IMG/VR virus record: IMGVR_UViG_3300025402_000001
Source: an uncultured virus (IMG/VR IMGVR_UViG_3300025402_000001)
Lineage: Duplodnaviria; Heunggongvirae; Uroviricota; Caudoviricetes
Length of the DNA: 64,000 nucleotides
Direction: 5' to 3' (one strand)
Below, in pieces: positions 2,652 to 63,051 of the stretch. A model generated the notes under the pieces. It was not told the origin of the DNA, ran no database searches, and saw only the letters and a list, made by a program, of their open reading frames with translations. A program made the position numbers and the translations under genes. Numbering within the stretch: position 1 is the first letter of the stretch; each line of letters starts with the position of its first letter.

Positions 2652-2963
2652 ATGACAGATAAGTATGTATACCAAATCCAAGGCGCGTTAGAGAACGCCG
2701 CCGGTGAGTTTAAAGGCTTGCGGATACTGGTATGTGACCTGTACAACTTTGACTCAGTGGATGTGCCAGTGGATATACTGGACAACGAGACGGCAAAGTA
2801 CATCCAGTTTAGGCTAAACTGCACCAAGGAAATAATGAACATAGCCAAGCTGCCATTTAAAATCCAAGATAATATTCGGGGGCCGTTAGGGCCCTGGCTG
2901 GACCACTGGGTCCGAGAAAACTTCCATGGCGATTTTAGCAACAGAAAAAGTCTTAACTTATAA
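2652..2963 (+). CDS. hypothetical protein (probably leaderless)
   Basis: 103-aa ORF directly after the promoter motif. Confidence 0.65.
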   Translation: MTDKYVYQIQGALENAAGEFKGLRILVCDLYNFDSVDVPVDILDNETAKYIQFRLNCTKEIMNIAKLPFKIQDNIRGPLGPWLDHWVRENFHGDFSNRKSLNL

Positions 2964-3918
2964 CTACTGGAAGCCAGCCTACAAGATTGAGGTTGGTGAC
3001 TACCTGTTTGACCACAACGGAAAACCTACTAAGGTTACACTGGTCCAGCAGTACCACACCCAGGATTGCTACAGGGTCACCCTATCTGACGGGCTGACTA
3101 TCTCAGGCGACAAAAACCTGGCATTTCCCACAGAAAACTTAAAATACCGAAATAGGTTACAAACCTATAAGGGCTTCTTTAAATTTCGAAGACCATTAAG
3201 ACCTATGAGTATCGAGGCTTTACAAAGCACATCTTTAAAAATAAAAGACAAGGAACTAGCATACTCCATCCCGTCTACTAAACCCTTAGCTTTACCACAC
3301 CAGGACCTACCAGTACCCCCATTCGTATTTGGGTACTGGTTTATAAACAAAAATGCCACAAACCATATCAGATCCCCTAAGGCATATAAAGACATAATAC
3401 CTCAAAAATTAAAAGACCGGGGGTACCTGATAACCCAGCAGCGTTGTCATAAAACCCATCGCATGGTCTATAGTACCGAGCCTAGAGTTGAAATGCAGCT
3501 GATTGGTAAAATACCAACCAACATCCCAGATAACTACCTACTAGGATCTATGGATCAAAGAATTGATCTGCTCTCTGGTATACTGTACGCCAAAAGAGGA
3601 TGGTACAACTTAAAAAACGATAGGTTTACCATTACCCTAAAAAGTTATCAACTTATACGGCAGATACAGGGGCTTGTAGAATCCCTTGGAATTAAAACAT
3701 CAATGTACTACAGGGAAGATAACAACGAGTATGTGTTCTCATTTCGTAGCCGTTTGCAGCTTATGGACCACCAGGTCTCACCAAAAATAAAAGTCCATCA
3801 GGCCCGGCGGTACATTGAACACATTAAACAAATTGAGCCACAGCTGTGTGTTCATATAGAAACCGAGGGGGCTGATAAGAGCTTCTTAGTCGGGGAAGGT
3901 TTTATATCATGTCTTTAA
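2926..3918 (+). CDS. free-standing intein-like protein (Hint plus degenerate LAGLIDADG domain)
   Basis: N-terminal block AILATEKV..VGDYLFDHNGKPTKV, LPVPPFVFGYW, QRIDLLSGIL, C-terminal block RRYI..CVHIET..FLVGEGFI; no terminal His-Asn. Confidence 0.8.
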   Translation: MAILATEKVLTYNYWKPAYKIEVGDYLFDHNGKPTKVTLVQQYHTQDCYRVTLSDGLTISGDKNLAFPTENLKYRNRLQTYKGFFKFRRPLRPMSIEALQSTSLKIKDKELAYSIPSTKPLALPHQDLPVPPFVFGYWFINKNATNHIRSPKAYKDIIPQKLKDRGYLITQQRCHKTHRMVYSTEPRVEMQLIGKIPTNIPDNYLLGSMDQRIDLLSGILYAKRGWYNLKNDRFTITLKSYQLIRQIQGLVESLGIKTSMYYREDNNEYVFSFRSRLQLMDHQVSPKIKVHQARRYIEHIKQIEPQLCVHIETEGADKSFLVGEGFISCL

Positions 3919-5354
3919 CACAAAAACAAGAAGTTACGTTAAGTAAATTCGCAGATGCCCATAAACACTGGCCCAAGCAACAGCTAGACTCCACACTGTG
4001 GCAAGTCAAATGGTCCCTGCAGGCACTACCACACCAAAAAGAACCAGAAGATGGAGAGTATGATACATTCCTTATGCTTGCCGGCCGCGGCTCTGGCAAG
4101 ACACACACTGCTAGTCATTGGATTGGTATTCGTGCTTGGAAGTACAGCGGAACCCGCTGGCTTGTCACGGCACCCACTTCAAATGATATTCGGGCTACCT
4201 GCTTCGAGGGAGACTCAGGACTCCTCAACATCATCCCCGCCAGCCTCATCAAAGACTACAACAAATCCCTGTTTGAGATCACCCTCACCAACGGATCCAT
4301 CATTCAAGGCATCCCCGCCTCCGAGCCGGAGCGCTACCGCGGCAAGCAGTTCCATGGCGCCTGGTTTGACGAGCTCTGCGCCTTTGACTACCTTGACCAA
4401 GCCTACGACGGCGTCCAGTTTACCCTCCGACTCAAAGACCCCAGAATCCCCAGGGTGCAGCAAATTATTACCACCACCCCAAAACCTAAAGAGCTCATCG
4501 TTGACCTCAACGAGGGTAAGGTCGGAGGGGATGTCTACGTCGTCAATGCCTCATCATACGACAACCGGGACAACCTATCAGAGACATTCTTCAAGCAGCT
4601 AGAGACGTATGAGGGAACAGATATTGGAAGGCAGGAGATCTATGGACAGATCCTTGACCCCGAAGCAACGGGTATCATCAAACGTAAAATGTTTAAGATG
4701 TGGCCCGCAGACAAACCAACCCCCGAGCTAGAGTACGTCATTGCCTCCTATGACCCAGCAACATCCGAAAAAACAATGAATGACCCCACCGCATGTACCG
4801 TATGGGGAATTTTTGAACAAGAAGACAAGGGGACATCCATTATTTTACTGGACGCATGGGACCAACACCTTGCGTACCCACAACTACGACGTAAAGTAAT
4901 TGATGACTTCAAAGAAGTTGTGTACGGATCTGATAACACCTTCGCTAAGGGCCGTAAAGCCGACCTGATACTCATGGAGGACAAGAGCGCAGGTATATCC
5001 CTCATCCAGGAACTGCAGGGCTCCGGGGTGCCTGTAAGGGGCTACAATCCACAACGTGCTGATAAGGTTCAAAGACTTAACATTGTCGCGCCCCTCGTTG
5101 CCAAGGGAAAGGTTTACATACCAGAAGATTCTAAAATCAAAGGTGACTTTGCCGAGTGGGCTAAGCGATTTCTTCGCCAAGTGTGCTCATTTCCAGAAGC
5201 CGGAGGCCATGACGACTATGTTGATAGTCTTTCCCAAGCCTTGAGAATATTAAGGGATTCTGGTTGGATTCAATTAGATTTCCTTCCTGCTCGCGACTAT
5301 GATTATTCAGATGACATATCTGCTAGAAAGTTTTCTAACCCTTATTCACAATAA
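3909..5354 (+). CDS. terL: terminase large subunit
   Basis: Walker A AGRGSGKT, Walker B AWFDE, ITTTPKP motif, nuclease motifs SYDPA and HDDYVDS. Confidence 0.95.
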   Translation: MSLTQKQEVTLSKFADAHKHWPKQQLDSTLWQVKWSLQALPHQKEPEDGEYDTFLMLAGRGSGKTHTASHWIGIRAWKYSGTRWLVTAPTSNDIRATCFEGDSGLLNIIPASLIKDYNKSLFEITLTNGSIIQGIPASEPERYRGKQFHGAWFDELCAFDYLDQAYDGVQFTLRLKDPRIPRVQQIITTTPKPKELIVDLNEGKVGGDVYVVNASSYDNRDNLSETFFKQLETYEGTDIGRQEIYGQILDPEATGIIKRKMFKMWPADKPTPELEYVIASYDPATSEKTMNDPTACTVWGIFEQEDKGTSIILLDAWDQHLAYPQLRRKVIDDFKEVVYGSDNTFAKGRKADLILMEDKSAGISLIQELQGSGVPVRGYNPQRADKVQRLNIVAPLVAKGKVYIPEDSKIKGDFAEWAKRFLRQVCSFPEAGGHDDYVDSLSQALRILRDSGWIQLDFLPARDYDYSDDISARKFSNPYSQ

Positions 5355-5398: not shown

Positions 5399-5482
5399 GA
5401 ATAGGAAGTAAAAAGCGCCTGCAGCGCCCGTTTAGGCCCGTACCTAAACTAGCTTCCAACTATTCAACTTACGGGAGTTAAA
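5399..5482 (+). ncRNA. structured leader with RBS pseudoknot, upstream of HNH gene
   Basis: P1 GGAAGT/GCTTCC, P2 GCGC/GCGC, P3 GTTTAGG/CCTAAAC; loop CCCGTA pairs with TACGGG at the SD. Confidence 0.7.
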
Positions 5483-5947
5483 ATGAAACAATGTACAAAA
5501 TGTGATTTATTATCCGACAACTTTGGAAAACATAAGCATACAAAAGATGGATTAGCTTCTTGGTGTAGAATTTGTAAAAATAAACAAACAAATTTTAAAA
5601 AAGATGCTAAAATGAAAGATAAACGCGGGCATGTAAACAGAATAATAAACCAAAGACGCGCAGAATCTAAAAAACAAAATGTTGTGTTTGAAATAGACTC
5701 CGAATACGCATTTAGTCTTGCTCAAGATATTTGCCCCGTTTTAGGGATAACATTATCTTGGACTGAAAGAAATGGTAAGGCCACAGATAACTCTCCGTCT
5801 TTAGATAAATTTAATCCCAAATTGGGGTATATTAAAGGTAATGTGGCTTGGATATCCTTTAAAGCAAATACAATTAAAAGCAATGCTTCCTTCAATGAAA
5901 TCCAGGCTGTAGCAGACTGGATGAAATCAATAGAACAAAACCAATAA
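5483..5947 (+). CDS. HNH homing endonuclease
   Basis: CxxC pairs, CPVLG..SPSLDKFNPKLGYIKGNVAWIS..AN..K. Confidence 0.85.
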   Translation: MKQCTKCDLLSDNFGKHKHTKDGLASWCRICKNKQTNFKKDAKMKDKRGHVNRIINQRRAESKKQNVVFEIDSEYAFSLAQDICPVLGITLSWTERNGKATDNSPSLDKFNPKLGYIKGNVAWISFKANTIKSNASFNEIQAVADWMKSIEQNQ

Positions 5948-5949
5948 AC

Positions 5950-8793
5950 ATGGCAAATCCAAAACTTCCGATTCAAGCAGGCAACAATCTACCTATGCAG
6001 GACCGGGAAGATGAAATCCATGACGCCAAAGACCAAGACATCGAGATGGAAGAATTTGAGGACGCCCTTGGATTAGACGAAGACGAAGTTGAGCAAGAGG
6101 TCATTGAAAATGATGATGGCTCGGTTATTGTAAACTTCATGCCAAAATCTAGTCCAAAAGACTCCCCAGAATTTTATGCAAACTTAGCCGGTGTATTTGA
6201 CCAAGACGATTTAAACGAACTTGCTAATGAATATTTAGACTACATTGACGTTGACCGGGAGTCACGTAAGCAACGAGACAAACAATACGAAGAGGGTCTT
6301 CGCCGCACTGGTCTCGGTAAAGACGCACCCGGTGGTGCCACATTTGATGGTGCCTCTAAGGTTGTGCACCCAGTCATGGCAGAAAGCTGCGTAGATTTTG
6401 GTGCATCATCGTCAAAAGAATTATTGCCACCCGATGGAATTGTTAAATCAAACATCAAGGGCACAGCCGACAGAACAAAAGAAGAAGTTGCTAATCGTAA
6501 AGTAGAATTTATGAACTGGCAGCTCACAGAACAAATACCTGAGTTCCGCGACGAAATGGAGCAGTTGCTGACCCAACTCCCACTAGGCGGTTCTCAGTTC
6601 CTTAAATGGCGCTATGACGCCGAGCAAGCAAGACCAACATGTGAGTGGGTCCCAATTGACAATATACTCCTTCCGTATTCATCTACAAACTTTTACACAG
6701 CGCAACGTGTAACTGAAGTACAAGACATTACAGAGGATACATTCTTACAACGTATCGAGGCAGGTATCTACATTGATATTGACTCAGACTATACATCAGA
6801 TGCCCCGTTAACAGAACAGACTCGCTCACAAGAGGCTAACAATAAGATCGAGGGCAAAGAAGAGCCATCTAAAAACATTGATGGTCTACGCCGTATTTAT
6901 GAAGTAACCTGTTTCATGCGTTTAGATGACGATACAGAAACAGAAGGCCGACGCGCCCCGTACATCCTAACTATTGATGAGACAACATCCAAAGTATTAG
7001 CACTCTACCGCAACTGGGAATGTAACGATGAAAAACTGGAAAAACTGGACTGGTTTGTCGAGTTTAAATTTATTCCTTGGCGTGGAGCTTACGCCATTGG
7101 ACTGCCTCAGCTTATTGGTGGGCTATCTGCTGCTCTTACCGGCGCTCTGCGTGCTTTACTTGACGCTGCGCACATCAACAACAGCCAGACGCTACTTAAG
7201 CTCAAAGGTGGAAGAATTGGTGGACAGTCTGATAGAATCGAGCCAACGCAAGTTGTAGAGATTGAAGGCGCACCTGGTGTTGATGATGTACGTAAGATCG
7301 CGATGCCGATGCCGTTTAACCAACCGTCTTCTGTACTGTTTAACTTATTAGGTTTTTTAACAGACGCAGCTAAAGGTGTAGTAACTACCGCCGAAGAAAA
7401 AATTGGCGAAGCAAACAACAACATGCCCGTTGGCACAACCCAGGCGCTTATTGAGCAGGGTGCCAAGGTATTCTCCTCTATTCATGCCCGTCTGCATCGC
7501 TCACAGGCTAAATCTCTTGCCATCATCTCACGTATCAACCACTGGTACCTAGATGAGATGGACAACCAGTCCGGAACAGAGATTAAGGTACGTGACTTTG
7601 CGTACAACTCTGATGTACGTCCAGTATCTGACCCTAACATATTCTCCGAATCACAACGTGTTGCGCAGAACCAGGCACTCTTACAGATGGCCTCTTCCGC
7701 GCCTCCGGGGATGTTTGATATCCGTGCCGTGTACCGCCGCGTACTACACCAGCTAAAGATTCCATCAGTAGAGGAAGTACTGCCAAATCCGTTAGGTGCC
7801 TCTGAGTCTAACCCAGCGCTTGAGAATGTCTCCATGACAATGGGACGACCAGCCGCGGCCTACCCAGACCAAGACCACATCTCACACATTAAGGTCCACC
7901 TAGAGTATGCAGAAAATCCAGCGTATGGTGGAAGCCCAGTCATTGGGCCAGTATTTGCTCCACATGCACTCGACCATATCAAGCAGCATTTAACACTGCA
8001 CTACCTCCAGTCAATGCGATCATACGTAGCACAAGCATCAGGCGGTAAAGATACACTTAATCTACATCAAGAAAACGCCCTAGACATAGAGTCACAACAG
8101 GCCTTAGCATTGGCGTCGCACATGGTAGATCAGGATGCTAAAGAAAATATGTCTGAATTTTCACAAAGAATTTCAACCTTGGCCCAAAAAGTTCAACAGG
8201 CCCAACAGGCTCAGCAACAACAAGCCGCTAATTCAGACCCAACAGCACAGGTTATTCTTAAGACTCAAATGGCTGAGACCCAGCGCAAGACACAAGAGTC
8301 ACAGGCTAAGATGCAGCTGGAGATGCAACAGGACCAACAGAACTACCAGCTTGAGGTTGCAAGACTTCAACAACAGGTTCAAGAGTTACAGGCTAAGTAC
8401 TCCACACAGACGAACATTGATAACCAACGCAACGCCACAGATATTGCAATGGCAAACATCAATAACGCCGCAAAAGAGCGTATTGCTATGATATCAGCCG
8501 GTGCTCAGATGGATCAACAACAGGCCCAACTAGACCATGAGCAAAACCAATCCGCAATGCAGGCCATTGCTGCATCGGATCAGGACATACGCCAGCATGG
8601 ACTAACAGTACAGCAGCAGGCATTTGAGGTACAGGCAAATCAAGTTAAACAACAGGCTGATGCACAGCAAAAAGCTGCATTGGCTGCGCAACAACACGGT
8701 CAACAACTGCAACAAAATGATCAACAGCATCAACAGGCATTAGAACAACAAGCATCAGCACCACAACCAACTACCACACCAGGAGCACAATAA
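5950..8793 (+). CDS. portal protein with long Gln-rich coiled-coil tail
   Basis: position after terL, size, ASKVVHPVMAE motif, coiled-coil C-terminus. Confidence 0.85.
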   Translation: MANPKLPIQAGNNLPMQDREDEIHDAKDQDIEMEEFEDALGLDEDEVEQEVIENDDGSVIVNFMPKSSPKDSPEFYANLAGVFDQDDLNELANEYLDYIDVDRESRKQRDKQYEEGLRRTGLGKDAPGGATFDGASKVVHPVMAESCVDFGASSSKELLPPDGIVKSNIKGTADRTKEEVANRKVEFMNWQLTEQIPEFRDEMEQLLTQLPLGGSQFLKWRYDAEQARPTCEWVPIDNILLPYSSTNFYTAQRVTEVQDITEDTFLQRIEAGIYIDIDSDYTSDAPLTEQTRSQEANNKIEGKEEPSKNIDGLRRIYEVTCFMRLDDDTETEGRRAPYILTIDETTSKVLALYRNWECNDEKLEKLDWFVEFKFIPWRGAYAIGLPQLIGGLSAALTGALRALLDAAHINNSQTLLKLKGGRIGGQSDRIEPTQVVEIEGAPGVDDVRKIAMPMPFNQPSSVLFNLLGFLTDAAKGVVTTAEEKIGEANNNMPVGTTQALIEQGAKVFSSIHARLHRSQAKSLAIISRINHWYLDEMDNQSGTEIKVRDFAYNSDVRPVSDPNIFSESQRVAQNQALLQMASSAPPGMFDIRAVYRRVLHQLKIPSVEEVLPNPLGASESNPALENVSMTMGRPAAAYPDQDHISHIKVHLEYAENPAYGGSPVIGPVFAPHALDHIKQHLTLHYLQSMRSYVAQASGGKDTLNLHQENALDIESQQALALASHMVDQDAKENMSEFSQRISTLAQKVQQAQQAQQQQAANSDPTAQVILKTQMAETQRKTQESQAKMQLEMQQDQQNYQLEVARLQQQVQELQAKYSTQTNIDNQRNATDIAMANINNAAKERIAMISAGAQMDQQQAQLDHEQNQSAMQAIAASDQDIRQHGLTVQQQAFEVQANQVKQQADAQQKAALAAQQHGQQLQQNDQQHQQALEQQASAPQPTTTPGAQ

Positions 8794-9270: not shown

Positions 9271-9714
9271 ATGGCAGCATTTGATGTTAGAGCAAAAGAA
9301 GAACCAGATACTAGATCCGAAGAAGAATGTTTCCCGGTTGTAGAGCATGGAACTGAAGTAGCTGGAGATAGAGTTTTAGTTCAACTAAGACGCCCTAAAA
9401 CAGCAAGTAAAGGCGGGATCATTTTTGTAGATGAGACCACACAAACGATTAAATTTAATGAGACTGTAGCTAAGGTTGTCCAGGTTGGACCTTTGGCATA
9501 CCGAAACCTAGACGACTTAACCCCCTGGATTGAAGGTCCTTGGTGTAAAGAAGGCGACTTGGTACGTACAATTAAGTACGGCGGTGACCGATTTGTGGTT
9601 GACGCAGGAGATGAGGGAGCACCCGTGGTGTTCATTACCTTACAGGCCCGTGAAATCATTTCTCGTATTCGATCTTTTGAATACGCACAGAAAATGAAGG
9701 CGTTTGTTGATTAA
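9271..9714 (+). CDS. groES: GroES/Cpn10-like co-chaperonin
   Basis: GDRVLVQ..KTASKGGII..VVQVGP..KEGDLV..KYGG pattern. Confidence 0.85.
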   Translation: MAAFDVRAKEEPDTRSEEECFPVVEHGTEVAGDRVLVQLRRPKTASKGGIIFVDETTQTIKFNETVAKVVQVGPLAYRNLDDLTPWIEGPWCKEGDLVRTIKYGGDRFVVDAGDEGAPVVFITLQAREIISRIRSFEYAQKMKAFVD

Positions 9715-13016: not shown

Positions 13017-13487
13017 ATGAAAATAGTTTCCAGACAACAAGCCATTGAACAAAAGCTAACCCGGTATTTTACTGGTAAGCCATGTAAACATGGCCATATT
13101 ACTGAAAAATTATTAAGTAATAGAACCTGTGTTGAATGCAAACGATTAGATAAAATAAAATGGGGTTCTCAACCTCATATAAAATCAGCATCAATTGCTA
13201 GAGCAAATGCTCACAACAAAAAGCACCCAGAAATGCATTTAGCTCGTACACGTAAACGCCAGGCAGCGTTATTGCAAAGAGTTCCAACTTGGGGCCCCCA
13301 CGCACATCTTATTATAGCCAAGTATCAACTAGCCAATATGCTATCTCAAGCATCTGGCGAGCCATACCACGTAGACCACATTATCCCACTGCAGGGTAAA
13401 AAAGTATCAGGTCTTCATGTCTTTTCCAATCTCAGAGTCATCCCTGGCTCAGACAACTCCAAAAAATCGAATAAGTTCGTAGTTTAG
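13017..13487 (+). CDS. HNH homing endonuclease
   Basis: RYFTGKPCKHGH..CVEC and HVDHIIPLQGKKVSGLHVFSNL..N..K. Confidence 0.9.
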   Translation: MKIVSRQQAIEQKLTRYFTGKPCKHGHITEKLLSNRTCVECKRLDKIKWGSQPHIKSASIARANAHNKKHPEMHLARTRKRQAALLQRVPTWGPHAHLIIAKYQLANMLSQASGEPYHVDHIIPLQGKKVSGLHVFSNLRVIPGSDNSKKSNKFVV

Positions 13488-13518
13488 GGCGGAATATCCC
13501 TTTATTTTGCATTAATAT
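13486..13518 (+). promoter_or_regulatory. phage promoter motif
   Basis: AGGGCGG-N15-TGCATTAATAT. Confidence 0.8.
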
Positions 13519-13614
13519 GTATAGGAAGATTAATCCCATTCTGACCGCCGACACTTCCCGGTGAGACGACTTAGAGACAGCTTGGGATACCCACTAAGAT
13601 AAGGAAACACCCAA

Positions 13615-15028: not shown

Positions 15029-15592
15029 ATGTATCAAGTATACTGGATACACCATAAAGATCATAATAACTTGTTTACTCAAGGTTATATCGGTGTATCC
15101 AATAATACTGAAAAAAGATTTTCTAAACACAAATCACAAACTAATCAAAACACACACATAAACCCAATTTTAACAAATGCTGTTAAAAAATACGGTTGGA
15201 ATAATTTAGTGAAAGATATTATTTTAATAGGCAATAAAGAATATTGTTTAGAAATAGAATCAAAACTAAGAAACACAAAAGAAATTGGTTGGAACATTGC
15301 CCCCGGTGGTGGTATGCCAAATGTTAAATTTGGCAATGAAAACCCAATGCGAAACCCAATTGTTGCAGCCAAAACAGCAGCAACTAAAAAAGGAATTGCA
15401 ACAAGGGGGTATGGTTGGCAACATTCTGAAGACACTAAAAATAAAATAGCTTTAAGTAAATTTGGTAAACTAAAACCTGGCAAAAAAGTTTTTGTAAACG
15501 GAATAGAATTTATTTCACAAAAATTAGCAGCTGAGCATTTTGGCATACATATTAGAACGTTTAAAAAACGCTATAAAAACGGAGAACTATAA
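15029..15592 (+). CDS. GIY-YIG homing endonuclease
   Basis: VYWI..GYIGVS..R..H, GWN, NUMOD3-like HSEDTKNKIA; AT-rich. Confidence 0.85.
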   Translation: MYQVYWIHHKDHNNLFTQGYIGVSNNTEKRFSKHKSQTNQNTHINPILTNAVKKYGWNNLVKDIILIGNKEYCLEIESKLRNTKEIGWNIAPGGGMPNVKFGNENPMRNPIVAAKTAATKKGIATRGYGWQHSEDTKNKIALSKFGKLKPGKKVFVNGIEFISQKLAAEHFGIHIRTFKKRYKNGEL

Positions 15593-25352: not shown

Positions 25353-26420
25353 ATGGCGTACAGTGGAACCACTGGAAATACAACAGTCAACGTTGATCAA
25401 CTGATCTCCTTTGCGTTTCGTGACGCCGGTAAGACCGCTGAGGAGATGACCCCGGAGCTTATTGGTGCCGCCAAGCAGGCATTGTTTTACAATCTTCAAA
25501 ACCTATCTAACCTCGGTGTTAATCTTTGGTTGTTGGAGAACATGCTCGTTGGCGCCGTAACGGCCCAGCAACAGTTAGTCCTACCTAAGACAGTGATTGA
25601 TGTACGAGAATCAAACTGGGTCTACATTATCAACCAGGCAGCCTCTGAGTACTTGCCTATTAGTAATCCAGATTCACCTGCAGTATTTGATCAAAACCTG
25701 TCCTTGGTTTCTACCTCCACAGTTGGTGCTAACTATTTTGGTCTTCAGTACCAATCAGCACAGCCTGTCTACTACGTTGGGTTTAATGGCTACGCAGTAG
25801 GTACTGGCACAACAACATATAACTTTGCCTATGAGACCAGCGAAGATGGAATCACTTGGACAACAGTAAAGCAACTACCGACTACAACACTCTCAGATAA
25901 AGAGTGGGCCTACTTTAACATCACCACAACACCAACGCACCTTTACTACAGGCTGCGTGAAACGGTTGCACCTACGTTCTCTATACGTCAAATCGTATTC
26001 TCTACGAGCCAGCAAGTCATTCCACTCGCCCGTTTAAATCGCGATGACTACTGGAATCTCCCAAATAAACAGTTCCCTAGCCAGCGCTCATTGCAGTATT
26101 GGTTTGATAGGACCATTGAGCCCTCGATGTACATCTGGCCAGTGCCCAATAACTCGTTTCAAATGTTTCAGTTAATTGTTGAGGTTCAAATGCAAGATGT
26201 AGGATCTTTGACAAATCAGATTTACGTACCTGACCGATGGATTAATTGTGTTCAAAAACAATTATCACATTCTATGTCTTTACAACTACCCGGTGTAGAT
26301 TTGCAACGTGTTCAATATCTAGAAGCTCAAGCACAAAAAGCATTCCTACAAGCCAGCGAGGAAGACAGGGACAAATCACCTATCTATTTCCAACCCAACA
26401 TCAGCTATTATACAAGATGA
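25353..26420 (+). CDS. head-tail adaptor/tail tubular-type protein
   Basis: LNRDDYWNLPNK..YWFDR..IWPVP pattern; tail-module position. Confidence 0.65.
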   Translation: MAYSGTTGNTTVNVDQLISFAFRDAGKTAEEMTPELIGAAKQALFYNLQNLSNLGVNLWLLENMLVGAVTAQQQLVLPKTVIDVRESNWVYIINQAASEYLPISNPDSPAVFDQNLSLVSTSTVGANYFGLQYQSAQPVYYVGFNGYAVGTGTTTYNFAYETSEDGITWTTVKQLPTTTLSDKEWAYFNITTTPTHLYYRLRETVAPTFSIRQIVFSTSQQVIPLARLNRDDYWNLPNKQFPSQRSLQYWFDRTIEPSMYIWPVPNNSFQMFQLIVEVQMQDVGSLTNQIYVPDRWINCVQKQLSHSMSLQLPGVDLQRVQYLEAQAQKAFLQASEEDRDKSPIYFQPNISYYTR

Positions 26421-26941
26421 ATACATCAGTATATTGGATACACCACAAAGACCATACAGATATATTTAGTCAAGGCTATGTTGGTGTATCTAAAAATTGC
26501 GAAGAAAGATGGAAGTCACATGCTTCCGGTGAGACAAACACTCATTTAAAAAACGCAATTTTAAAATATGGCTGGAATATGTTAGTTAAAGAAATTGTAT
26601 TAATTGCAGATTCGGACTACTGTTTTACTATTGAAAATATGTTACGCCATAAAGAAAAAACAGGTTGGAATATATGTGTTGGTGGTGGAAATCCTCCAAG
26701 TAATTTAGGTAAAAAAAGACCAAATCATGCAGCTAAATTGCTAGGGAAAAAACGTCCAGAACACGCAAAACACATGCTTGGAAAAAACAACCCGGGGGCA
26801 GTTACCATAAAATTTGAAAATAAAGTTTTTGATACAATAAAAGATTTATCACAATTTTTAAACAAAAACTATATGACAACATATAACAGAGTTATGCAGA
26901 ATCCAAAACGTTGGGGTTACGAGGTAATTAAATGTCAGTAA
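26417..26941 (+). CDS. GIY-YIG homing endonuclease (paralog of 15029)
   Basis: VYWIHHKDH..QGYVGVS..KYGWN.LVK shared with the 15029 ORF. Confidence 0.85.
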   Translation: MNTSVYWIHHKDHTDIFSQGYVGVSKNCEERWKSHASGETNTHLKNAILKYGWNMLVKEIVLIADSDYCFTIENMLRHKEKTGWNICVGGGNPPSNLGKKRPNHAAKLLGKKRPEHAKHMLGKNNPGAVTIKFENKVFDTIKDLSQFLNKNYMTTYNRVMQNPKRWGYEVIKCQ

Positions 26942-42409: not shown

Positions 42410-43464
42410 TGCCTAAGTTATCTCTACCTGAAATTCGTGCGCTGTTGGATGAGGCCAAGGCGGCCTATAAGGCCAAGTTTACGACAGGATTTTATCATGG
42501 TAGTCCAGCAAATAACATAGAGGCATTTGATCCCACAAAGTCTGCTAAGGATCCAATGTACATTACTCCTAAAGCGACTTTTGTAACTAGGGACCCAGAG
42601 TTTGCGGAATCATTTTTGTCAATGAACAACAGTGGCAAAGTTAAATCTGGCTCTACTATGTATCCAGTAAATGTCAATCTAGGACAACATTGGCACCCCG
42701 ATACACAGGAAGGTCAACAGGTTATTTCAGACTTTATTGAAAAGTATCCGAAGCGCGTTAACCTTGAAAAGGGTTTAAAGCGTGGTGACTGGACAGCGAT
42801 TGAAAACTCAGACTTTTTAACGCACTTAAAAGATACAGGACATGATACCTTCCACGTAGTAGAGGGTGGTATCCCTAACGTCGGTGTATTAAAGCCTGAA
42901 AACATCCGTGGCAAGTTTGCTGAGTACAATCCTGATGAGGCAATGAACCCAGACTTTATGAAGGCAGCTGGTGGCTCTGTTGAGGGTTACGCTGGTGGTG
43001 GTGAGGTACTAAAGAAGGTATTAAAGTTTGCTGAGGATGTACCATTTATTCATTACAGCAACCACCCGTCACTTAATAGACTAGAGCCCAGCATGTATGG
43101 TCGCGGCATTAAGGGGCAAGAGGCGGCAAGGCTTAAAGATGCTCCAGATATTAAAGACCGTAGCTACTTCTACGTAAATAAGGGTGAGCAGACAATGCCA
43201 CCAGAGCAGGGACTTGGTAGCCAAAAGTATCAAGGTACCGCATCAAATGTATACAACGCGGCCGAAGACCCAGAGGGATTTCATGCCATTGCTAAGAGCC
43301 GTGCACTTGATCCATACATGATGTCTTTTGGTCGTGAGATGGTAGATCCTGCCGTTAAGGCCACCGAGCTAGAGCGCCTTATTAAAGGTGCGGGCTATGA
43401 GGGCTACCACACCGGTGATGTGGGGCTGATGTTCAACCCCACACCGGTTAGTAAAGCACCGTAG
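42409..43464 (+). CDS. putative ejected effector with ADP-ribosyltransferase-like domains
   Basis: FYHGS..FD..FVT.DPEFAESF..MYPV..NIRGKFAEYNP; second FIHYS..RSYFY..GYEGY domain. Confidence 0.55.
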   Translation: MPKLSLPEIRALLDEAKAAYKAKFTTGFYHGSPANNIEAFDPTKSAKDPMYITPKATFVTRDPEFAESFLSMNNSGKVKSGSTMYPVNVNLGQHWHPDTQEGQQVISDFIEKYPKRVNLEKGLKRGDWTAIENSDFLTHLKDTGHDTFHVVEGGIPNVGVLKPENIRGKFAEYNPDEAMNPDFMKAAGGSVEGYAGGGEVLKKVLKFAEDVPFIHYSNHPSLNRLEPSMYGRGIKGQEAARLKDAPDIKDRSYFYVNKGEQTMPPEQGLGSQKYQGTASNVYNAAEDPEGFHAIAKSRALDPYMMSFGREMVDPAVKATELERLIKGAGYEGYHTGDVGLMFNPTPVSKAP

Positions 43465-43837
43465 CTTTAACCCAATTAGCAAACTGATGCAACTGTTCTG
43501 GCGTTGCATCTCGTTTCATACAATTTGCCATATTGGAAAGCCATTGCACATTGCCGATGGTATATCCTTTTTCAGGATCTATTTTATCTAACGATGGGCT
43601 TGTCTGAAGTATTTTTCCTTTTTGATGACCCCAAGATAATTCAGTATTAAACACTGGACATTTATCAGGAAAAATAGAAATTAAATACTCTAATGTCAGA
43701 TCAAACGGAATGTTTAATTTTTTGGCGCGGTATTTAGTTTCAAAAAATCGACGTTTAATACAACCCCCTTTGGTGGACATTAACCTGTCTTGATGTTTTT
43801 TGGAACGAATTGCTTGTTTTTCTTTTTGCGAAAGCAT
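43448..43837 (-). CDS. HNH homing endonuclease (same family as 5483)
   Basis: CPVF..SPSLDKIDPEKGYTIGNVQWLS..AN.MK. Confidence 0.85.
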   Translation of the reverse strand: MLSQKEKQAIRSKKHQDRLMSTKGGCIKRRFFETKYRAKKLNIPFDLTLEYLISIFPDKCPVFNTELSWGHQKGKILQTSPSLDKIDPEKGYTIGNVQWLSNMANCMKRDATPEQLHQFANWVKATVLY

Positions 43838-43925
43838 TTTGATACTCCTGAATAGTAGTTTGAAGTTGATAGGTGAGTCTTAGATTCAGGCTAAGACAAA
43901 GTTTTCGAACACTCTGTCCCTATCT
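43838..43925 (-). ncRNA. structured leader with RBS pseudoknot, upstream of HNH gene
   Basis: P1 GATAGG/CCTATC, P2 AGAGT/ACTTT, P3 GTCTTAG/CTAAGAC; loop CCTGAAT pairs with ATTCAGG at the SD. Confidence 0.7.
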
Positions 43926-43929
43926 ATAC

Positions 43930-43962
43930 ATATTAATGCAAAAAACTAGGCAAATCCGCCCT
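43930..43962 (-). promoter_or_regulatory. phage promoter motif
   Basis: AGGGCGG-N15-TGCATTAATAT. Confidence 0.8.
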
Positions 43963-45901
43963 ATTTTTTGTACCTTTTTGAGACCCAGCCGTCTCCGGCT
44001 AATGGAAAATCAGGAGCCCATTTTGGTGGTTGTGTTACCATTTTTAACACATCAGCCAAAGTCTGTTCTGCATTTTTCTCATCAGTTAATAAAAGGTATT
44101 CATCATGTATCAAGTTAGTCACCTCGTAACCGGCTTTATCAAGCCTAGTAAGTCCCTCGGCCAAAAAATCACGTGCGGTACCCTGCACCGCGGATTGAAA
44201 CAACGAACTACCAATAATCTGATTCCTACCCCACTGCCTTGTATATGTGCTCTGAGTGTGGACAGTGACCCCGACCTTTTGCTGACCCCACGGAGTGGTG
44301 ACCAGCTCGAGCTGTGGCCTCTGCCAGCAGATGAGTCTACCTGATGGCAGCTGCATCCATAGCGCGTTCTTTGCCACCTTCAGAACCAGCTTATCCCCGG
44401 CACGAAACGGATTACCGGGATTCTCAACTGCTTGAATCGCGGCATTTTCGCACAATGCCCACAAAGCCTTCACTTTCACATACGAACTGCGGTAGCCATC
44501 TACTGCGTTCTTGGCTTGAGCCTCACTAAGTTTTACACCCATCCCCTCCGCGTACTTAACAAGTCCTTTCGCGCCTTGTCCAAACATTGCACCTAAAACC
44601 GCTGACTTCGCGATTTGGCGCTGATCTTTAGTAACGTCGTCATAACTGACGTGATAAAGATTATCTGCTGCAAATGTTTTATACTCATCTAATCCTTTCC
44701 GGAACAATTCCACTTTATCTTTTTGCCCAGCCAGGTAGACGCCAACTCGGTTTTCAATTGAGCTAAAATCCACGTCAACGAAGGTTTTTCCCTCTGGTGC
44801 TCTAATAGCGGAGCGTACAAGGGAGGAAAGTTCTCGCATCGTACCATTTCCTCCCATAAATACGTTTGGTATTGCCTGTTCAATTTCCTCATCTTCAAGT
44901 GTGGGGCGCGCAATATTCTGCAAATTAAGCCCACCACGGCTCGCCCAGCGGCCAGTACTAGCGCCATGATATACCAATGTATTCCTAATCCGTCCTTCAC
45001 GTTGTATCTCCATCATTTTAGCGTACTTAGCCACGCTAGTTTGGCTTCCTTCTTGGCGCAGTTCTAAAGCTCTGCGAAGGGGTTTAAATAGGTGCTCCAG
45101 TTTAAGTGTTTTCTCTACTGTCTCGGCTGTTAAATCTGGTAACGGATCAATCATCATCTTGTTAACCCAACCCAGCAATTTGGCCCTCTCAGACGGCTTA
45201 AAACCGGTCAAGGCGACGCATTCGTTATCTAGTTGGTCCTGGGCCCTCACCACGGCCAAGACGGCGCTGTGGAGCTCGTTAGGATCAACCGGTACGCCTT
45301 TTAAATTAATTTTCTGAGTCAGTAGCCAAACTTCCTGCTCGGCCTCTGTAAGGGGCCTTAAATTGGCTACAATCGCCATCTCTGTGCGTACGTCCTGTGC
45401 GCAGTAATCAAACAACTCACGCATTAACTCTGGATCTTCATTAAAGGTGCCTTTATGGGGCTTGCACAACTTCTGGATCAGGTATCTACCACGGGTATCT
45501 TTTTGGTGCGCGCTGTCCATGAAGATGGCTGCATCACCCAATGATTGTGGCACGTTGTTGGCTGCTGCTATGGCCATGGAGTCAACGCACTGCTCTAGCT
45601 TTAAGGGAGGCCAGCCGTATTTAGGCACACAGACACAGTTCCAGATGGCGTACTCGAACATGGCGTTCCATGCTTGGATCTTGCCACCATCTTTGACGTG
45701 CTTTAAAAAACGAGAAAAAGCCATCACCGTGTTTGTGTCTGGTTTGGGTGCGTTGTAAACCGCTACATCGCTGGGGTTTGTGCCGTACGCAATACACAAC
45801 ACTTCCGTTGTGGGGTCGTTGGCGTAGATATCCAGACCGCGGTCGGTTAGATCAATGTGGCTACGTGTCTCAAAGTCAATACTAAAAATTTGCTCTTTCA
45901 T
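43961..45901 (-). CDS. polA: DNA polymerase family A with 3'-5' exonuclease
   Basis: IDFET exo I, TGRW, DFSSIENR motif A, RQIAKSAVLGAMFG motif B, IHDE motif C; start set at ATG after AGGAG. Confidence 0.93.
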   Translation of the reverse strand: MKEQIFSIDFETRSHIDLTDRGLDIYANDPTTEVLCIAYGTNPSDVAVYNAPKPDTNTVMAFSRFLKHVKDGGKIQAWNAMFEYAIWNCVCVPKYGWPPLKLEQCVDSMAIAAANNVPQSLGDAAIFMDSAHQKDTRGRYLIQKLCKPHKGTFNEDPELMRELFDYCAQDVRTEMAIVANLRPLTEAEQEVWLLTQKINLKGVPVDPNELHSAVLAVVRAQDQLDNECVALTGFKPSERAKLLGWVNKMMIDPLPDLTAETVEKTLKLEHLFKPLRRALELRQEGSQTSVAKYAKMMEIQREGRIRNTLVYHGASTGRWASRGGLNLQNIARPTLEDEEIEQAIPNVFMGGNGTMRELSSLVRSAIRAPEGKTFVDVDFSSIENRVGVYLAGQKDKVELFRKGLDEYKTFAADNLYHVSYDDVTKDQRQIAKSAVLGAMFGQGAKGLVKYAEGMGVKLSEAQAKNAVDGYRSSYVKVKALWALCENAAIQAVENPGNPFRAGDKLVLKVAKNALWMQLPSGRLICWQRPQLELVTTPWGQQKVGVTVHTQSTYTRQWGRNQIIGSSLFQSAVQGTARDFLAEGLTRLDKAGYEVTNLIHDEYLLLTDEKNAEQTLADVLKMVTQPPKWAPDFPLAGDGWVSKRYKK

Positions 45902-46091
45902 ACATGCTCCTGTGGCAAGCCAACGTATTGGCGGTTTAATAAAAACGTACAAAATCAACTATTAGTTTACTTTTTCGTACATTTTTAAACTTTTTATTAC
46001 AAATCAGTACTTTAACATACTTTTTTACACATTAACATACTGTGTGTTAAAGACGCATTTTAATGTTAAGGTGCATCTTTAAACTTCATAC

Positions 46092-46152: not shown

Positions 46153-46632
46153 TTATTTGTTTCCGTGGTTTGCTATTAATTTGCACCAAGCAATAAACAC
46201 TTCGTTTGACATATCTTTTTTCATCATGTTTAATGCTTTATGTACGATTTGAATGTTATTTGGGTTGTACCCCATATTACTATCAATTCTATCCACGGAA
46301 GCATCGACACCAAATTCTAAAGGTATCCCAGTAAAAGCGCATAGTTTATCTTGTGCTTCATACCGATCACTAATCTCCTCAATAGTTAGCTCAAAATTTA
46401 TACTACGTTTTTCTGCGCCGTGCTTTAGTTTAGAGTGAACTTTACCTGGTATCTCACCATATCCACGCCAAGCAGGATTTTTGTCGAGCTTGGCGTTTCT
46501 GTTTGGAGAACGATTGTTTAACGCGGTTCGACAAGAAGCACATACAGCGTTGTTGGCATTTGCTTTTTGGACAGAATCAGCACGCTTGTAGTGTATTGTC
46601 TTACCACATTTAGGGCAATCTCTTATAAACAT
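46153..46632 (-). CDS. HNH homing endonuclease
   Basis: CPKC/CASC, CAFTG..SVDRIDSNMGY..NIQIV..N.MK. Confidence 0.85.
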   Translation of the reverse strand: MFIRDCPKCGKTIHYKRADSVQKANANNAVCASCRTALNNRSPNRNAKLDKNPAWRGYGEIPGKVHSKLKHGAEKRSINFELTIEEISDRYEAQDKLCAFTGIPLEFGVDASVDRIDSNMGYNPNNIQIVHKALNMMKKDMSNEVFIAWCKLIANHGNK

Positions 46633-46634
46633 AA

Positions 46635-48509
46635 TTATATTTCGCACGATCCAGCACTGCATGCTAGGGTTTGAACACCCTCTACGTTGTCTGTGTTCTC
46701 CTTTAAATCTAGCCAGTTAATTTTAGGGATTTTGGCTTTGAGCTCTTCATACTCTTCTTCGGTGCATTCTTCATAAGGACTTTGGCGGTAACTTCCGCCG
46801 TCGTAGGGGAGGTAGCTAACTCCACTGATTTCGTCGAAGTGGTCCCATGTCCAGGCTCCGACACTTGGCCAGTCTTTTTCTGCAACTGAGACGGTGACTG
46901 AGGGCTTGTGCTCACACCAGTATCGCTGGTAGGTAAGCCAGAGTTCGAGGTGACTAATGGGAGTAACGTCGTCCCGTACGAGTCCGTCGGGGGCTCTTTG
47001 AGGAAAACTGAAGACGGTAGTTTGGGTTGGCTTGTAAACGCAGTCTTCAGCTGGTACTCCTTGTCCAATAAGGAACTGGGTGAGAGGATCTTTTTTATCT
47101 CCACGCACTCTTCGGATATAGTATTTAGCATGGCGAGGGTGGATGCCGCTCGCCGAATTAGTGAGCTGGGATACTGTTCCACTTGGCTTGACGCATGTGA
47201 TAGCAGCGCTGACAGGGACTCCGAGAATAGCTGCCCATTCTTTATTTGTATCTCTAGCGCATTCTCTAAGTTCTGTAAGTAGTTCATTTAATTCTGGTCC
47301 TTGGGTTGTGAGAAGGGGATTATCATAGATGCCGGTGAGGGAGACACCCAGTAACCGCTCCTCTTCAGTATTTCTCTGCCACACCTTGCGCAGATAGGGG
47401 AACTTTGTGAAGGTAGACTGGATGGTACCAAGGATAGCGGCGAGGCGCACCTTACGCAAGAGAGTTTCACGGTTGTCGTCATGGCGTACTACACATTCAC
47501 TAAGATTGCAAAATTGGTAGGGTCGTAAAATGATCTCACTGCACGGATTTGTACCGAACTCAAAATTTGGATCTCGATGCCCGTATTTTTCAACCGCCTT
47601 TTTAGCAGCCTCCCGATTGAATATGCCTCGCTCACCGGAATGGGAGTTGTAAAGTGATAGCCATTCCTCCATGAACTTTCCGACAGTAGGTGTCTCATTA
47701 TACACCGCACTGTTGTTCGCAAGAGCCCTATGCGGAGCGGTGTCCCACCATGGTCCAGCTTTTGCATGTCTAATCCTTTCGTCGTCCAGGTCGGAAAGTG
47801 AAATCATAGCTGATCGGCGTACGCCACCCACTACAACCACCTCACCAATTTTACACATCAAGTCGTGGCACTCTAGGCTGTTTAGCTTACGACCCTTGGC
47901 GTGTTTAAATGTTGCTACAGTAAACTCAAATAGATCAATTAGTGGTTGTGGCCCGGAAGCTCTTCCACCAAATGTTTTGAGTCGTGCTCCGGCAGGTCTA
48001 ACATTGCTGACGTCCCACTGCGGGATTTCTCCAGCCCAGAGGCTTGCGAGGAGTAAACGTAATGATTTTGCCCAGCCTTCTTTGGAGTCGTGGACTGTGA
48101 TGCGATGCTCGGACTCAAAAAGTTTTTCCGGCACTTCAGGCAGTAAGGATATATATTTGGCCTCGACTGAGAATCCCACACCTGTTCCACAGAGCAGGAT
48201 AAACATGGCCTCATCGAAAGACTTGGGGTCATCCACTGGAAGATACGAGCAATTATAGACGCAAGTATTGTCACGATCGGCACTCTTTCCTGCAGTCATC
48301 ATGGCTCGCATGGACGGCATCAATTCAAGGTTAACAATAGACTTGTACAAGTCTGCTTTTAGTTCTTCATTGCCAGTGATGGCTGGTGTACGGCTAAAAA
48401 TATAATCTGTAAATCTGGTTACTGTCTCTGGCCAACTTTCACGACGACCCTTGTCATCTTGATAGCGGGCATAACGGCTGGCGGCAATGTACTCTTGATA
48501 CTGGTCCAT
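46635..48509 (-). CDS. nrdJ: ribonucleotide reductase, class II (B12-dependent) type
   Basis: YNCSY, TNPCSE, CNLSE, KPSGTVS, C-terminal CSAGSC; no beta subunit in window. Confidence 0.88.
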   Translation of the reverse strand: MDQYQEYIAASRYARYQDDKGRRESWPETVTRFTDYIFSRTPAITGNEELKADLYKSIVNLELMPSMRAMMTAGKSADRDNTCVYNCSYLPVDDPKSFDEAMFILLCGTGVGFSVEAKYISLLPEVPEKLFESEHRITVHDSKEGWAKSLRLLLASLWAGEIPQWDVSNVRPAGARLKTFGGRASGPQPLIDLFEFTVATFKHAKGRKLNSLECHDLMCKIGEVVVVGGVRRSAMISLSDLDDERIRHAKAGPWWDTAPHRALANNSAVYNETPTVGKFMEEWLSLYNSHSGERGIFNREAAKKAVEKYGHRDPNFEFGTNPCSEIILRPYQFCNLSECVVRHDDNRETLLRKVRLAAILGTIQSTFTKFPYLRKVWQRNTEEERLLGVSLTGIYDNPLLTTQGPELNELLTELRECARDTNKEWAAILGVPVSAAITCVKPSGTVSQLTNSASGIHPRHAKYYIRRVRGDKKDPLTQFLIGQGVPAEDCVYKPTQTTVFSFPQRAPDGLVRDDVTPISHLELWLTYQRYWCEHKPSVTVSVAEKDWPSVGAWTWDHFDEISGVSYLPYDGGSYRQSPYEECTEEEYEELKAKIPKINWLDLKENTDNVEGVQTLACSAGSCEI

Positions 48510-48927: not shown

Positions 48928-49442
48928 ACAGCAAAGTCCGACGCTGCTGATGTAGACCCACCAAACTTCTCACCATCCTCTAACTTCTGCACATTGTTCA
49001 AGCCGGCAGCAATACCCTTAGAGCCGCTTGTATCGTACGGATACAAAGTGATGGATGCACGGCCATAGCAACCTGAGTAGAACTCGCTGGTGTCGATGAT
49101 TGGGTTCAGGTCTTGGTCTACAATACCTGGGCGTTCGTTAGAGCTGGCGTTGATAAAGTAATGACCTGCATAAGCCGCGTCATCTTTCTCTGCATCACCA
49201 TCACGTAGTCCGCCTTTAAGGAGCTTAGGTACTGAGCCACCCCACACGGCTGCGTTGATTGTCTTGGTCTCTTCAAACGCCTTCTTAAAGCGCGCCACTG
49301 TCTCTGTGTCTGACTTAGGGATAAGGATGGATACAGAGTACTTTAACACGCCGTTTGGTGTCTCAGCTGGCTGGAACACGTTAGCGTAAGAGAAGCGAAC
49401 CTTGCCAGTTACAAACTTGGTCTTGATTGATTTTGTTGCCAT
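48924..49442 (-). CDS. single-stranded DNA-binding protein (DUF2815/gp2.5-like)
   Basis: VRFSYANVF..KYSVSILIPK..LRDGD..YSGCYGR..GLNNVQKL.DGE; promoter motif at 49509-49519. Confidence 0.9.
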   Translation of the reverse strand: MATKSIKTKFVTGKVRFSYANVFQPAETPNGVLKYSVSILIPKSDTETVARFKKAFEETKTINAAVWGGSVPKLLKGGLRDGDAEKDDAAYAGHYFINASSNERPGIVDQDLNPIIDTSEFYSGCYGRASITLYPYDTSGSKGIAAGLNNVQKLEDGEKFGGSTSAASDFAV

Positions 49443-49555
49443 GATGATTATTACCTTTTTAACATAAAGACTGGACTTCATTTGGGGCCAGTCTGTCTAC
49501 CCATACACATATTAATGCAAAAACAACCTACTTTTTATTTCACAATATGAGATAT

Positions 49556-62932: not shown

Positions 62933-63051
62933 TTGTATGGGTAGTATGGGTAGTACCCCTTACTTTATCATTTTTAATATTTTTAAAAAAATAAAAACGT
63001 AGTAGTGGGTAAAGTGCGTTTATACCCGTACTACCCATACTACCCATACAA
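62933..63051. repeat. copy 2 of inverted-end element (perfect 24-bp IR), candidate origin
   Basis: TTGTATGGGTAGTATGGGTAGTAC ... GTACTACCCATACTACCCATACAA around an AT-rich core. Confidence 0.85.

Follow-up and report, generated by a model that had tools for sequence, protein, structure and literature searches.

Genes and promoter-like motifs in the window

The window (the whole stretch of 64,000 nucleotides analysed here) covers the majority of the genome of an uncultured tailed phage, for which the kind of records that it matches suggests a freshwater origin. It encodes a terminase (3909-5354), a portal protein (5950-8793) and PolA (polA, 43961-45958, minus strand), together with RNR, helicase and primase genes. 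Two of its ORFs carry a structured leader and match phrog_3322 'endonuclease'. One of these (43448-43837, minus strand; 129 amino acids; E = 4.6e-32) is a free-standing gene at the end of polA. It encodes a putative homing endonuclease with a predicted fold of the HNH/His-Me type and lies behind the leader called copy 2 below. The other (5483-5947, plus strand; 154 amino acids), whose protein is 38% identical to the first, occupies the terminase/portal junction behind copy 1 (5403-5482, plus strand).

The first-pass annotation labelled both genes HNH, which calls for a small correction. The predicted structure of the copy-2 protein (pLDDT 88.5) is HNH-like, its best structural match being the HNH enzyme PacI with moderate scores (Foldseek E 0.044, prob 0.99, TM 0.50; VIA Z 7.2, rmsd 5.2, 99 aligned). 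However, a Pfam search of both leader-bearing ORFs gave no HNH match, nor any Pfam match at all, and both are phrog_3322 members. By inspection, this nuclease family has D-K or D-R where classic HNH proteins have D-H. A PDB sequence search returned only spurious kinase matches.

Several other features of the window are recorded here. A conserved ORF of 330 amino acids (2926-3918, plus strand) overlaps the terminase start and shows a weak match to LAGLIDADG_3 as well as matches to terminase PHROGs; it may represent something resembling a stand-alone intein-like gene. A phage-encoded Cpn10/GroES-like co-chaperonin (9271-9714, plus strand) is located in the head gene cluster, and a perfect 24-nt inverted repeat with 71 nt between its arms (62933-63051) lies near the start of the primase gene.

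A phage promoter-like motif, GGGCG...TTGCATTAATAT, is present in 13 copies in the window compared with 0.11 expected. It is found at 2636, 5387, 9043, 13001, 13507, 23950, 24513 and 31272 on the plus strand and at 43941, 46103, 49520, 51708, 52268 and 53938 on the minus strand. The example upstream of copy 2, GGGCG...TTTTTTGCATTAATAT (43926-43965, minus strand), overlaps the polA stop codon and is here part of the inserted cassette; we take it to be a functional promoter. At 2652, 9059, 13017 and 53923 an ATG directly follows the motif, which suggests leaderless mRNAs at these positions. Among 36 distinct promoter cores from related phage DNA, the next nucleotide is an A in 31 and an ATG follows directly in 10. 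Since the cores are mostly followed by A or ATG, we infer a transcription start (+1) at 43925, with P1 beginning at +2.

The copy-2 leader has the same offset from its promoter as the leaderless ATGs and as copy 1, in keeping with the earlier remark that both leaders occupy the same position between promoter and ATG. With this promoter-based +1, the segment originally delimited, 43838-43925 on the minus strand, would be the complete 5' leader of 88 nt, to which the covariance models also match. No copy of the motif occurs inside either window leader; it lies upstream of P1 and of the presumed start site. Two leaders from elsewhere (L200 and L202) have no promoter motif directly upstream. In some leaders P1 can be extended into the sequence upstream of +1, an extension that is not conserved.

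Two other leaders behind promoter motifs were observed in the window. An Rfam DUF2815 RNA (49440-49503, minus strand; 73.8 bits) stands directly behind a motif and before the gene for an ssDNA-binding protein. A different, apparently structured leader of about 95 nt (13519-13614, plus strand) follows the promoter at 13507; it begins like copy 1 (AGGAAG) and is matched by neither leader model.

Architecture of the two leaders

Copy 2 forms a three-way junction (43868-43924, minus strand) closed by P1, in which GATAGG (43924-43919) pairs with CCTATC (43873-43868). The junction carries two hairpins. P2 (43898-43915) has a loop with the self-complementary hexamer TTCGAA (43909-43904), and P3 (43877-43897) has the stem GTCTTAG/CTAAGAC (43897-43891 and 43883-43877) and the anti-SD kissing loop CCTGAAT (43890-43884). 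A further hairpin, P4 (43843-43857, TACT/AGTA), displays ATTCAGG (43853-43847). The Shine-Dalgarno (SD) sequence AGGAG (43849-43845) is divided between the two, with three nucleotides (AGG) in the kiss and two (AG) in P4, and the ATG follows at 43837-43835. The P1 and P3 pairings named in the first-pass annotation are all present on the minus strand, and CCTGAAT is, as was noted there, exactly complementary to the ATTCAGG that overlaps the SD. Copy 1, on the plus strand, has the P2 loop CCTGCAG (5418-5424), the P3 loop CCCGTA (5437-5442) and a P4 (5466-5479) that includes TACGGG (5470-5475) with the SD GGAG (5474-5477).

The core fold of copy 2 has a z-score of -2.9 against 300 mononucleotide shuffles. 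When the RNA is folded without the kiss, the copy-2 SD is already predicted to be mostly paired by way of an alternative linker helix, and the kiss may therefore not be the sole brake.

A covariance model (R1) built from nine copy-1-type leaders, with no member of the copy-2 subtype, retrieved copy 2 as its best non-self match in 64 kb (28.8 bits, E = 1.3e-4). The reverse test, a copy-2-type model on copy 1, was weaker (17.2 bits, E = 0.15). The R1 match and the covariation described below together uphold the original proposal that copy 2 is a second copy of the same leader family with compensatory changes.

A covarying leader family

We collected 31 distinct leaders, all from this phage group, using protein-first scans, DNA patterns, comparison of junctions and model searches of whole records. 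All 31 form the three-way junction. R1 matched all 23 leader loci supplied to it at E <= 0.0015. In a 23-row alignment, 97.4% of 385 cells in the nested helices are paired, with double changes in 15 of 17 pairs; the 31 leaders share ancestry, so such counts do not represent independent events. None of 500 shuffles reached this level of pairing and slid controls gave 34-51%. In the same alignment, P1 is paired in 100% of cells (double changes in 6 of 6 pairs) and P3 in 98.8% (6 of 7 pairs).

A descriptor scan of 381,612 bases found 15 leader sites and one false match, with none in 138,788 shuffled bases. Of six matches in a pattern scan, three were copy 2 in near-identical phages and three were unrelated. 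Another pattern scan gave 59 matches, including seven distinct leaders with a 6-bp kiss and a nuclease gene; the remainder were dropped as chance. In a further scan, eight of nine matches were leaders already in the set. Covariance models favour consensus letters. Six model matches were discarded, five as antisense echoes (L203, L204 and L218-L220) and one (L335, E = 0.03) that had no ORF.

Among 80 nuclease loci from the protein-first scan, only those of this phage group have the leader, which is thus not general to phrog_3322. Patterns for both leader subtypes gave no match in GTDB genomes, and a blastn search of INPHARED with two leaders gave only short chance matches. The leader is a real, covarying RNA family.

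Pairing of the P3 loop with the SD

Each of the 31 leaders forms 6-7 bp between its P3 loop and the SD strand. The pairing is entirely Watson-Crick in 30 and is made by 21 different sequences, and the target strand always ends 6-9 nt before the ATG. As the kiss does not enter the model scores, those 15 leaders that were first detected by model or junction searches provide an out-of-sample test: all 15 are paired.

P4 has at least 3 bp in all 31 leaders and at least 4 bp in 24. Its inner three pairs are intact in 93 of 93 cells, a level not reached in any of 2000 shuffles; the patterns of the 59- and nine-match scans fixed P4 and SD letters for some copy-1-type members, and the covarying P4 variants came from other searches. 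These variants include ACT/AGT changed to ATT/AAT and to ACC/GGT, with T-A/C-G and C-G/T-A swaps. In every leader the kiss and P4 together contain the whole of the best SD match. Since the SD strand is displayed as the P4 loop, the contact is a loop-loop kiss. The first-pass annotation was thus right about the pairing between the loop and the SD but missed P4: the partner is better seen as a hairpin loop than as a free strand. The linker between P1 and P4 is 5-14 nt long (median 8), short enough that it may strain the kiss in cis.

Downstream genes and mobility of the cassette

Nuclease-like ORFs of five classes follow 30 of the 31 leaders: 19 phrog_3322, four HNH, two endonuclease VII, four T5orf172 and one GIY-YIG/NUMOD3 (28 of the 30 were classified by scans of family libraries, whereas L178 and L180 were placed on the strength of their resemblance to L028). 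T5orf172 is itself a member of the GIY-YIG superfamily. The remaining leader, in L337 (600-991, genome G110), precedes a conserved gene of 102 amino acids with no PHROG match and may be what remains after a nuclease gene was lost. The same 102-amino-acid gene is leaderless in the window (2652) and in L028 and L029.

Nuclease genes do not require the leader, as four in the window (13017-13487, 15029-15592 and 26417-26941, plus strand; 46153-46662, minus strand) and one in L028 lack it. Those in the window comprise one HNH-like, two GIY-YIG and one phrog_1035/3322 gene; the one at 13017 is a leaderless gene and the one at 46153-46662 appears to overlap the end of the RNR gene. A weak match to leader model R2 (26361-26416, plus strand; 16 bits, E = 0.29) resembles a P1-only remnant of a copy-2 leader. 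It lies directly before the GIY-YIG gene at 26417, within the upstream coding region, and may be due to chance.

Distribution of the leader is patchy. At the end of polA, two of five alleles contain promoter, leader and nuclease gene and three contain none of them; the promoter-like motif is missing from all three empty alleles. The cassette thus extends over approximately 43448-43965. At the terminase junction, leader and nuclease occur in eight of 80 loci (three distinct cassettes), while in the other 72 the leader is missing and the next gene is not such a nuclease; the promoter there is native and not part of the insert. L028 and L029 form a filled/empty pair for a T5orf172 gene. At both the terminase and the lysozyme junctions, the transcript that begins with the leader would run on into conserved genes further downstream. 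The nuclease-family ORF is therefore optional at a site between conserved genes, as in free-standing homing endonuclease genes. This arrangement, together with family membership, suggests that the leader-borne genes encode homing-type endonucleases, with presumptive nuclease and homing activity.

Some arrangements of neighbouring genes should also be mentioned. In L119, L128, L105 and L141 the nuclease stop codon precedes the start of the following gene by 1-2 nt, which places the SD of that gene within the last nuclease codons and would favour keeping the insert. In L012 and L013 (approximately 2350-2950) a DNA polymerase gene is split by a region that looks by eye like a group I intron and contains a phrog_3322 relative; an Rfam scan of L012 at the gathering threshold gave no match. 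In L200 (1584-2390, genome G045) two tRNA genes directly follow a leader-bearing HNH gene, an arrangement that we take to be reminiscent of T4 segB.

The self-complementary P2 loop

A feature overlooked in the first-pass annotation is a self-complementary core (a palindrome of at least 4 nt) in the P2 region of 30 of the 31 leaders, the sole exception being L338. Six different cores occur (TGCA, TCGA, GGCC, AGCT, AATT and CGCG; the last was identified by eye in L198, for which the script had scored a palindrome on the stem side). Such words are present in 5-33% of background hairpin loops in the same DNA. Six of seven distinct P2 cores are self-complementary, for which the binomial p is 0.0004-0.007 against a background of 20-33%, a figure weakened by shared ancestry. 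Hexamers in copy-2-type leaders are TTCGAA, GTCGAC, CTCGAG and GTGCAC. That of L216, GUGCAC in the RNA, is the HIV-1 DIS word, and the copy-2-type loops have flanking adenines on the 3' side. Duplex strength is low for some hexamers, at -4.1 kcal/mol for copy 2 (weak) and -0.4 kcal/mol for TAATTA.

The two window leaders would cross-pair poorly. Eight genomes have at least two leaders. None of these genomes repeats a kiss word, and in five the P2 cores are different as well; the leaders of G017 and those of G110 have a core in common, and in G004 one core is missing. Judging from these palindromes, pairing of two leaders at the P2 tip (dimerisation) is somewhat favoured over its absence, and a regulatory role for such a dimer is a more tentative proposition, which we consider rather doubtful.

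Proposed mechanism and alternative explanations

The covarying pairings, their overlap with the SD, the link with nuclease genes and the patchy distribution lead us to view the leader as, most probably, a portable cis-acting translational brake for free-standing homing-type endonuclease genes. Transcription would start at approximately 43925 and the RNA would fold into P1, P2 and P3 around the three-way junction. Next would come a P4 hairpin of 3-4 bp, whose loop of 6-7 nt contains the upstream half of the SD, and the P3 loop would kiss this loop along its full length. With AGG held in the kiss and AG in P4, the SD would be buried and ribosome loading low despite the phage promoter. Control would be exerted by RNA and not through the cognate protein, and if the P2 tip joins two leaders, the brake could depend on leader concentration. 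Such a brake would keep a risky nuclease scarce while the promoter, at some sites, also serves downstream genes. Because the promoter is upstream of the whole fold, the release used by T-even late promoters is not available, and the brake would be either leaky by design or released in another way, for which the P2 loop is, by analogy, the best candidate.

One alternative is a concentration-sensing switch, in which leaders join at their P2 tips and the P3-P4 kisses are made reciprocally in trans. Repression would then operate only when leader RNA is abundant, giving negative feedback that weakens in mixed infections, where the gene is diluted. The retention of self-complementarity through sequence change in P2, the four palindromic copy-2-type hexamers with their DIS-like member, the poor cross-pairing of the window copies and a linker short enough perhaps to disfavour the kiss in cis are all consistent with such a switch. 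Yet the copy-2 and TAATTA duplexes are weak, the palindromes may owe their outer pairs to closure of the loop within a single molecule, L338 has no palindrome and both G017 leaders have the same P2 word. We therefore consider the switch possible but doubtful, and its fully protein-free form, with dimerised leaders burying each other's SD, slightly less probable again. If it operates, a selfish nuclease gene would gauge how much of its own transcript is present, distinct loop words would keep most co-resident nuclease genes independent of each other, and expression would rise on dilution by a nuclease-free co-infecting phage. Should P2 dimerisation control translation, this mRNA leader would be under the control of its own concentration; in the portions of the literature accessible to our search, no such leader was found described for phages or bacteria.

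The remaining explanations invoke other partners or another function for the fold. The junction nucleotides (GAA/GAC and CTA/CTYA) might form a binding site for a metabolite, or for a common factor of phage or host, whose binding stabilises or opens the kiss. These letters and the first P3 pair are indeed conserved across subtypes, a built-in OFF fold needs some release and, by analogy, a kissing loop controls an RBS hairpin in cobalamin riboswitches (as given in the accessible part of PMC10327014). We nevertheless regard a ligand as unlikely: few nucleotides are invariant enough for an aptamer, no Rfam riboswitch matches and the downstream genes are selfish nucleases rather than metabolic genes. 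Autogenous control, by binding of the nuclease to its own leader RNA or to the P2 palindrome as a DNA operator, appears more improbable still. It has a precedent in I-TevI, whose autorepression at its operator is established (PMC2988022, in the text available), P2 forms an inverted repeat shortly after the presumed +1, and the loops of the two window leaders differ. But an identical P2 loop (TGTCGACAA) precedes phrog_3322, HNH and T5orf172 proteins, which makes control by a cognate protein unlikely, G-U pairs in P2 stems point to RNA and one leader stands before a non-nuclease gene. The cognate, nuclease-specific regulation envisaged in the first-pass annotation is likewise not supported, as one scaffold serves five nuclease classes and one non-nuclease gene, and near-identical copy-2-type leaders precede unrelated proteins (phrog_3322 in L023, T5orf172 in L028). 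Least probable of all, in our estimate, is that the fold mainly stabilises the transcript or is an RNA bound by the nuclease, with only incidental overlap of the SD. A 5' stem starting at the presumed +2, and leaders that head transcripts into conserved genes at the terminase and lysozyme junctions, would be compatible with this. The kiss, however, changes in 21 ways and always overlaps the SD, ending 6-9 nt before the ATG; in addition, there is no HEARO match, and a single guide RNA would not be expected across unrelated nuclease classes. We therefore retain the RNA-based translational brake as the preferred explanation.

Comparison with known systems

At the gathering threshold, Rfam 15 identified only the DUF2815 RNA elsewhere in the window and nothing at the leaders. 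E-value scans of both window copies gave no credible plus-sense match, and a scan of 19 leader loci and L012 yielded only two tRNAs. A reading as an HDV-like or hammerhead ribozyme was rejected for want of an Rfam match; we also take the topology of both ribozymes to differ from that of the leader.

Fremin 2023 (PMC10690425) includes, in the parts available, anonymous candidate structured RNAs located before nucleases. One of these, DNAVirus_1290, is 92 nt long, comes from 15 freshwater phage sequences, is listed as palindromic and is located no more than 25 bp from HNH as well as from GIY-YIG genes (PMC10690425). The accessible supplement tables contain no sequences matching six leader motifs, so that the comparison is by description; our family may be DNAVirus_1290 or a similar candidate, which bears on its novelty. 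The main text, as far as available, gives no reading in terms of an SD kiss, P4 or nuclease control (PMC10690425). A literature search that included the available text of Weinberg 2017 (PMC5737381) and of the HEARO paper (PMC9755519), with most subscription papers outside its scope, found no description of the leader.

Like the leader, HEARO/omega RNA is a structured RNA located 5' of an HNH-type nuclease gene (PMC9755519, in part). The leader has no RF02033 match, is only about 85 nt long and is associated with unrelated small nucleases instead of IscB. In cobalamin riboswitches (L5-L13) a kissing loop from a junction-borne hairpin likewise governs an RBS hairpin, according to the section consulted of PMC10327014. 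The leader has no cobalamin aptamer or Rfam match and its kiss sequence varies freely; the likeness is one of analogy, not homology. Palindromic tips mediate RNA dimers in HIV-1 and MoMuLV, and the HIV-1 DIS, the MoMuLV GACG and the oskar loops also present a self-complementary word of 4-6 nt at a hairpin tip (PMC7357161, in the text available). Those loops function in eukaryotic systems, in the packaging of genomes or the transport of mRNA, whereas the P2 loop is a candidate for dimerisation that is located next to an anti-SD kiss in the 5' leader of a phage gene.

The closest parallel is with T-even phages, where RNA structure sequesters the RBS of homing endonuclease genes and a late promoter, by omitting the inhibitory half, lifts repression (PMC2988022 and PMC3014915, in the parts available). 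The hairpins of I-TevI/II/III, segB and Aeh1 mobE likewise bury the RBS of a phage homing-type nuclease gene; as described there, they are gene-specific, are confined to read-through transcripts and are avoided by use of the late promoter. The leader differs in having its promoter upstream of the whole fold, in its four helices with a loop-loop kiss and in the use of a single scaffold by five nuclease classes. Leader model R3 gave no significant match on T4, Aeh1, SPbeta or MW202545; its best match (E = 0.05, before T4 gene 30.7) has no three-way junction and was rejected.

What is known of how free-standing homing endonucleases limit harm to their own phage comes solely from a handful of gene-specific hairpins in T-even phages. 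Here, five nuclease classes share one modular RNA, which thus has the look of a mobile regulatory part itself. Its small size (about 85 nt) and its 21 natural, perfectly compensated kiss variants facilitate testing and make it of use in RNA engineering. The leader would work like the RBS-sequestering controls of phage homing endonucleases and is set apart from them by its architecture and by its promoter logic.
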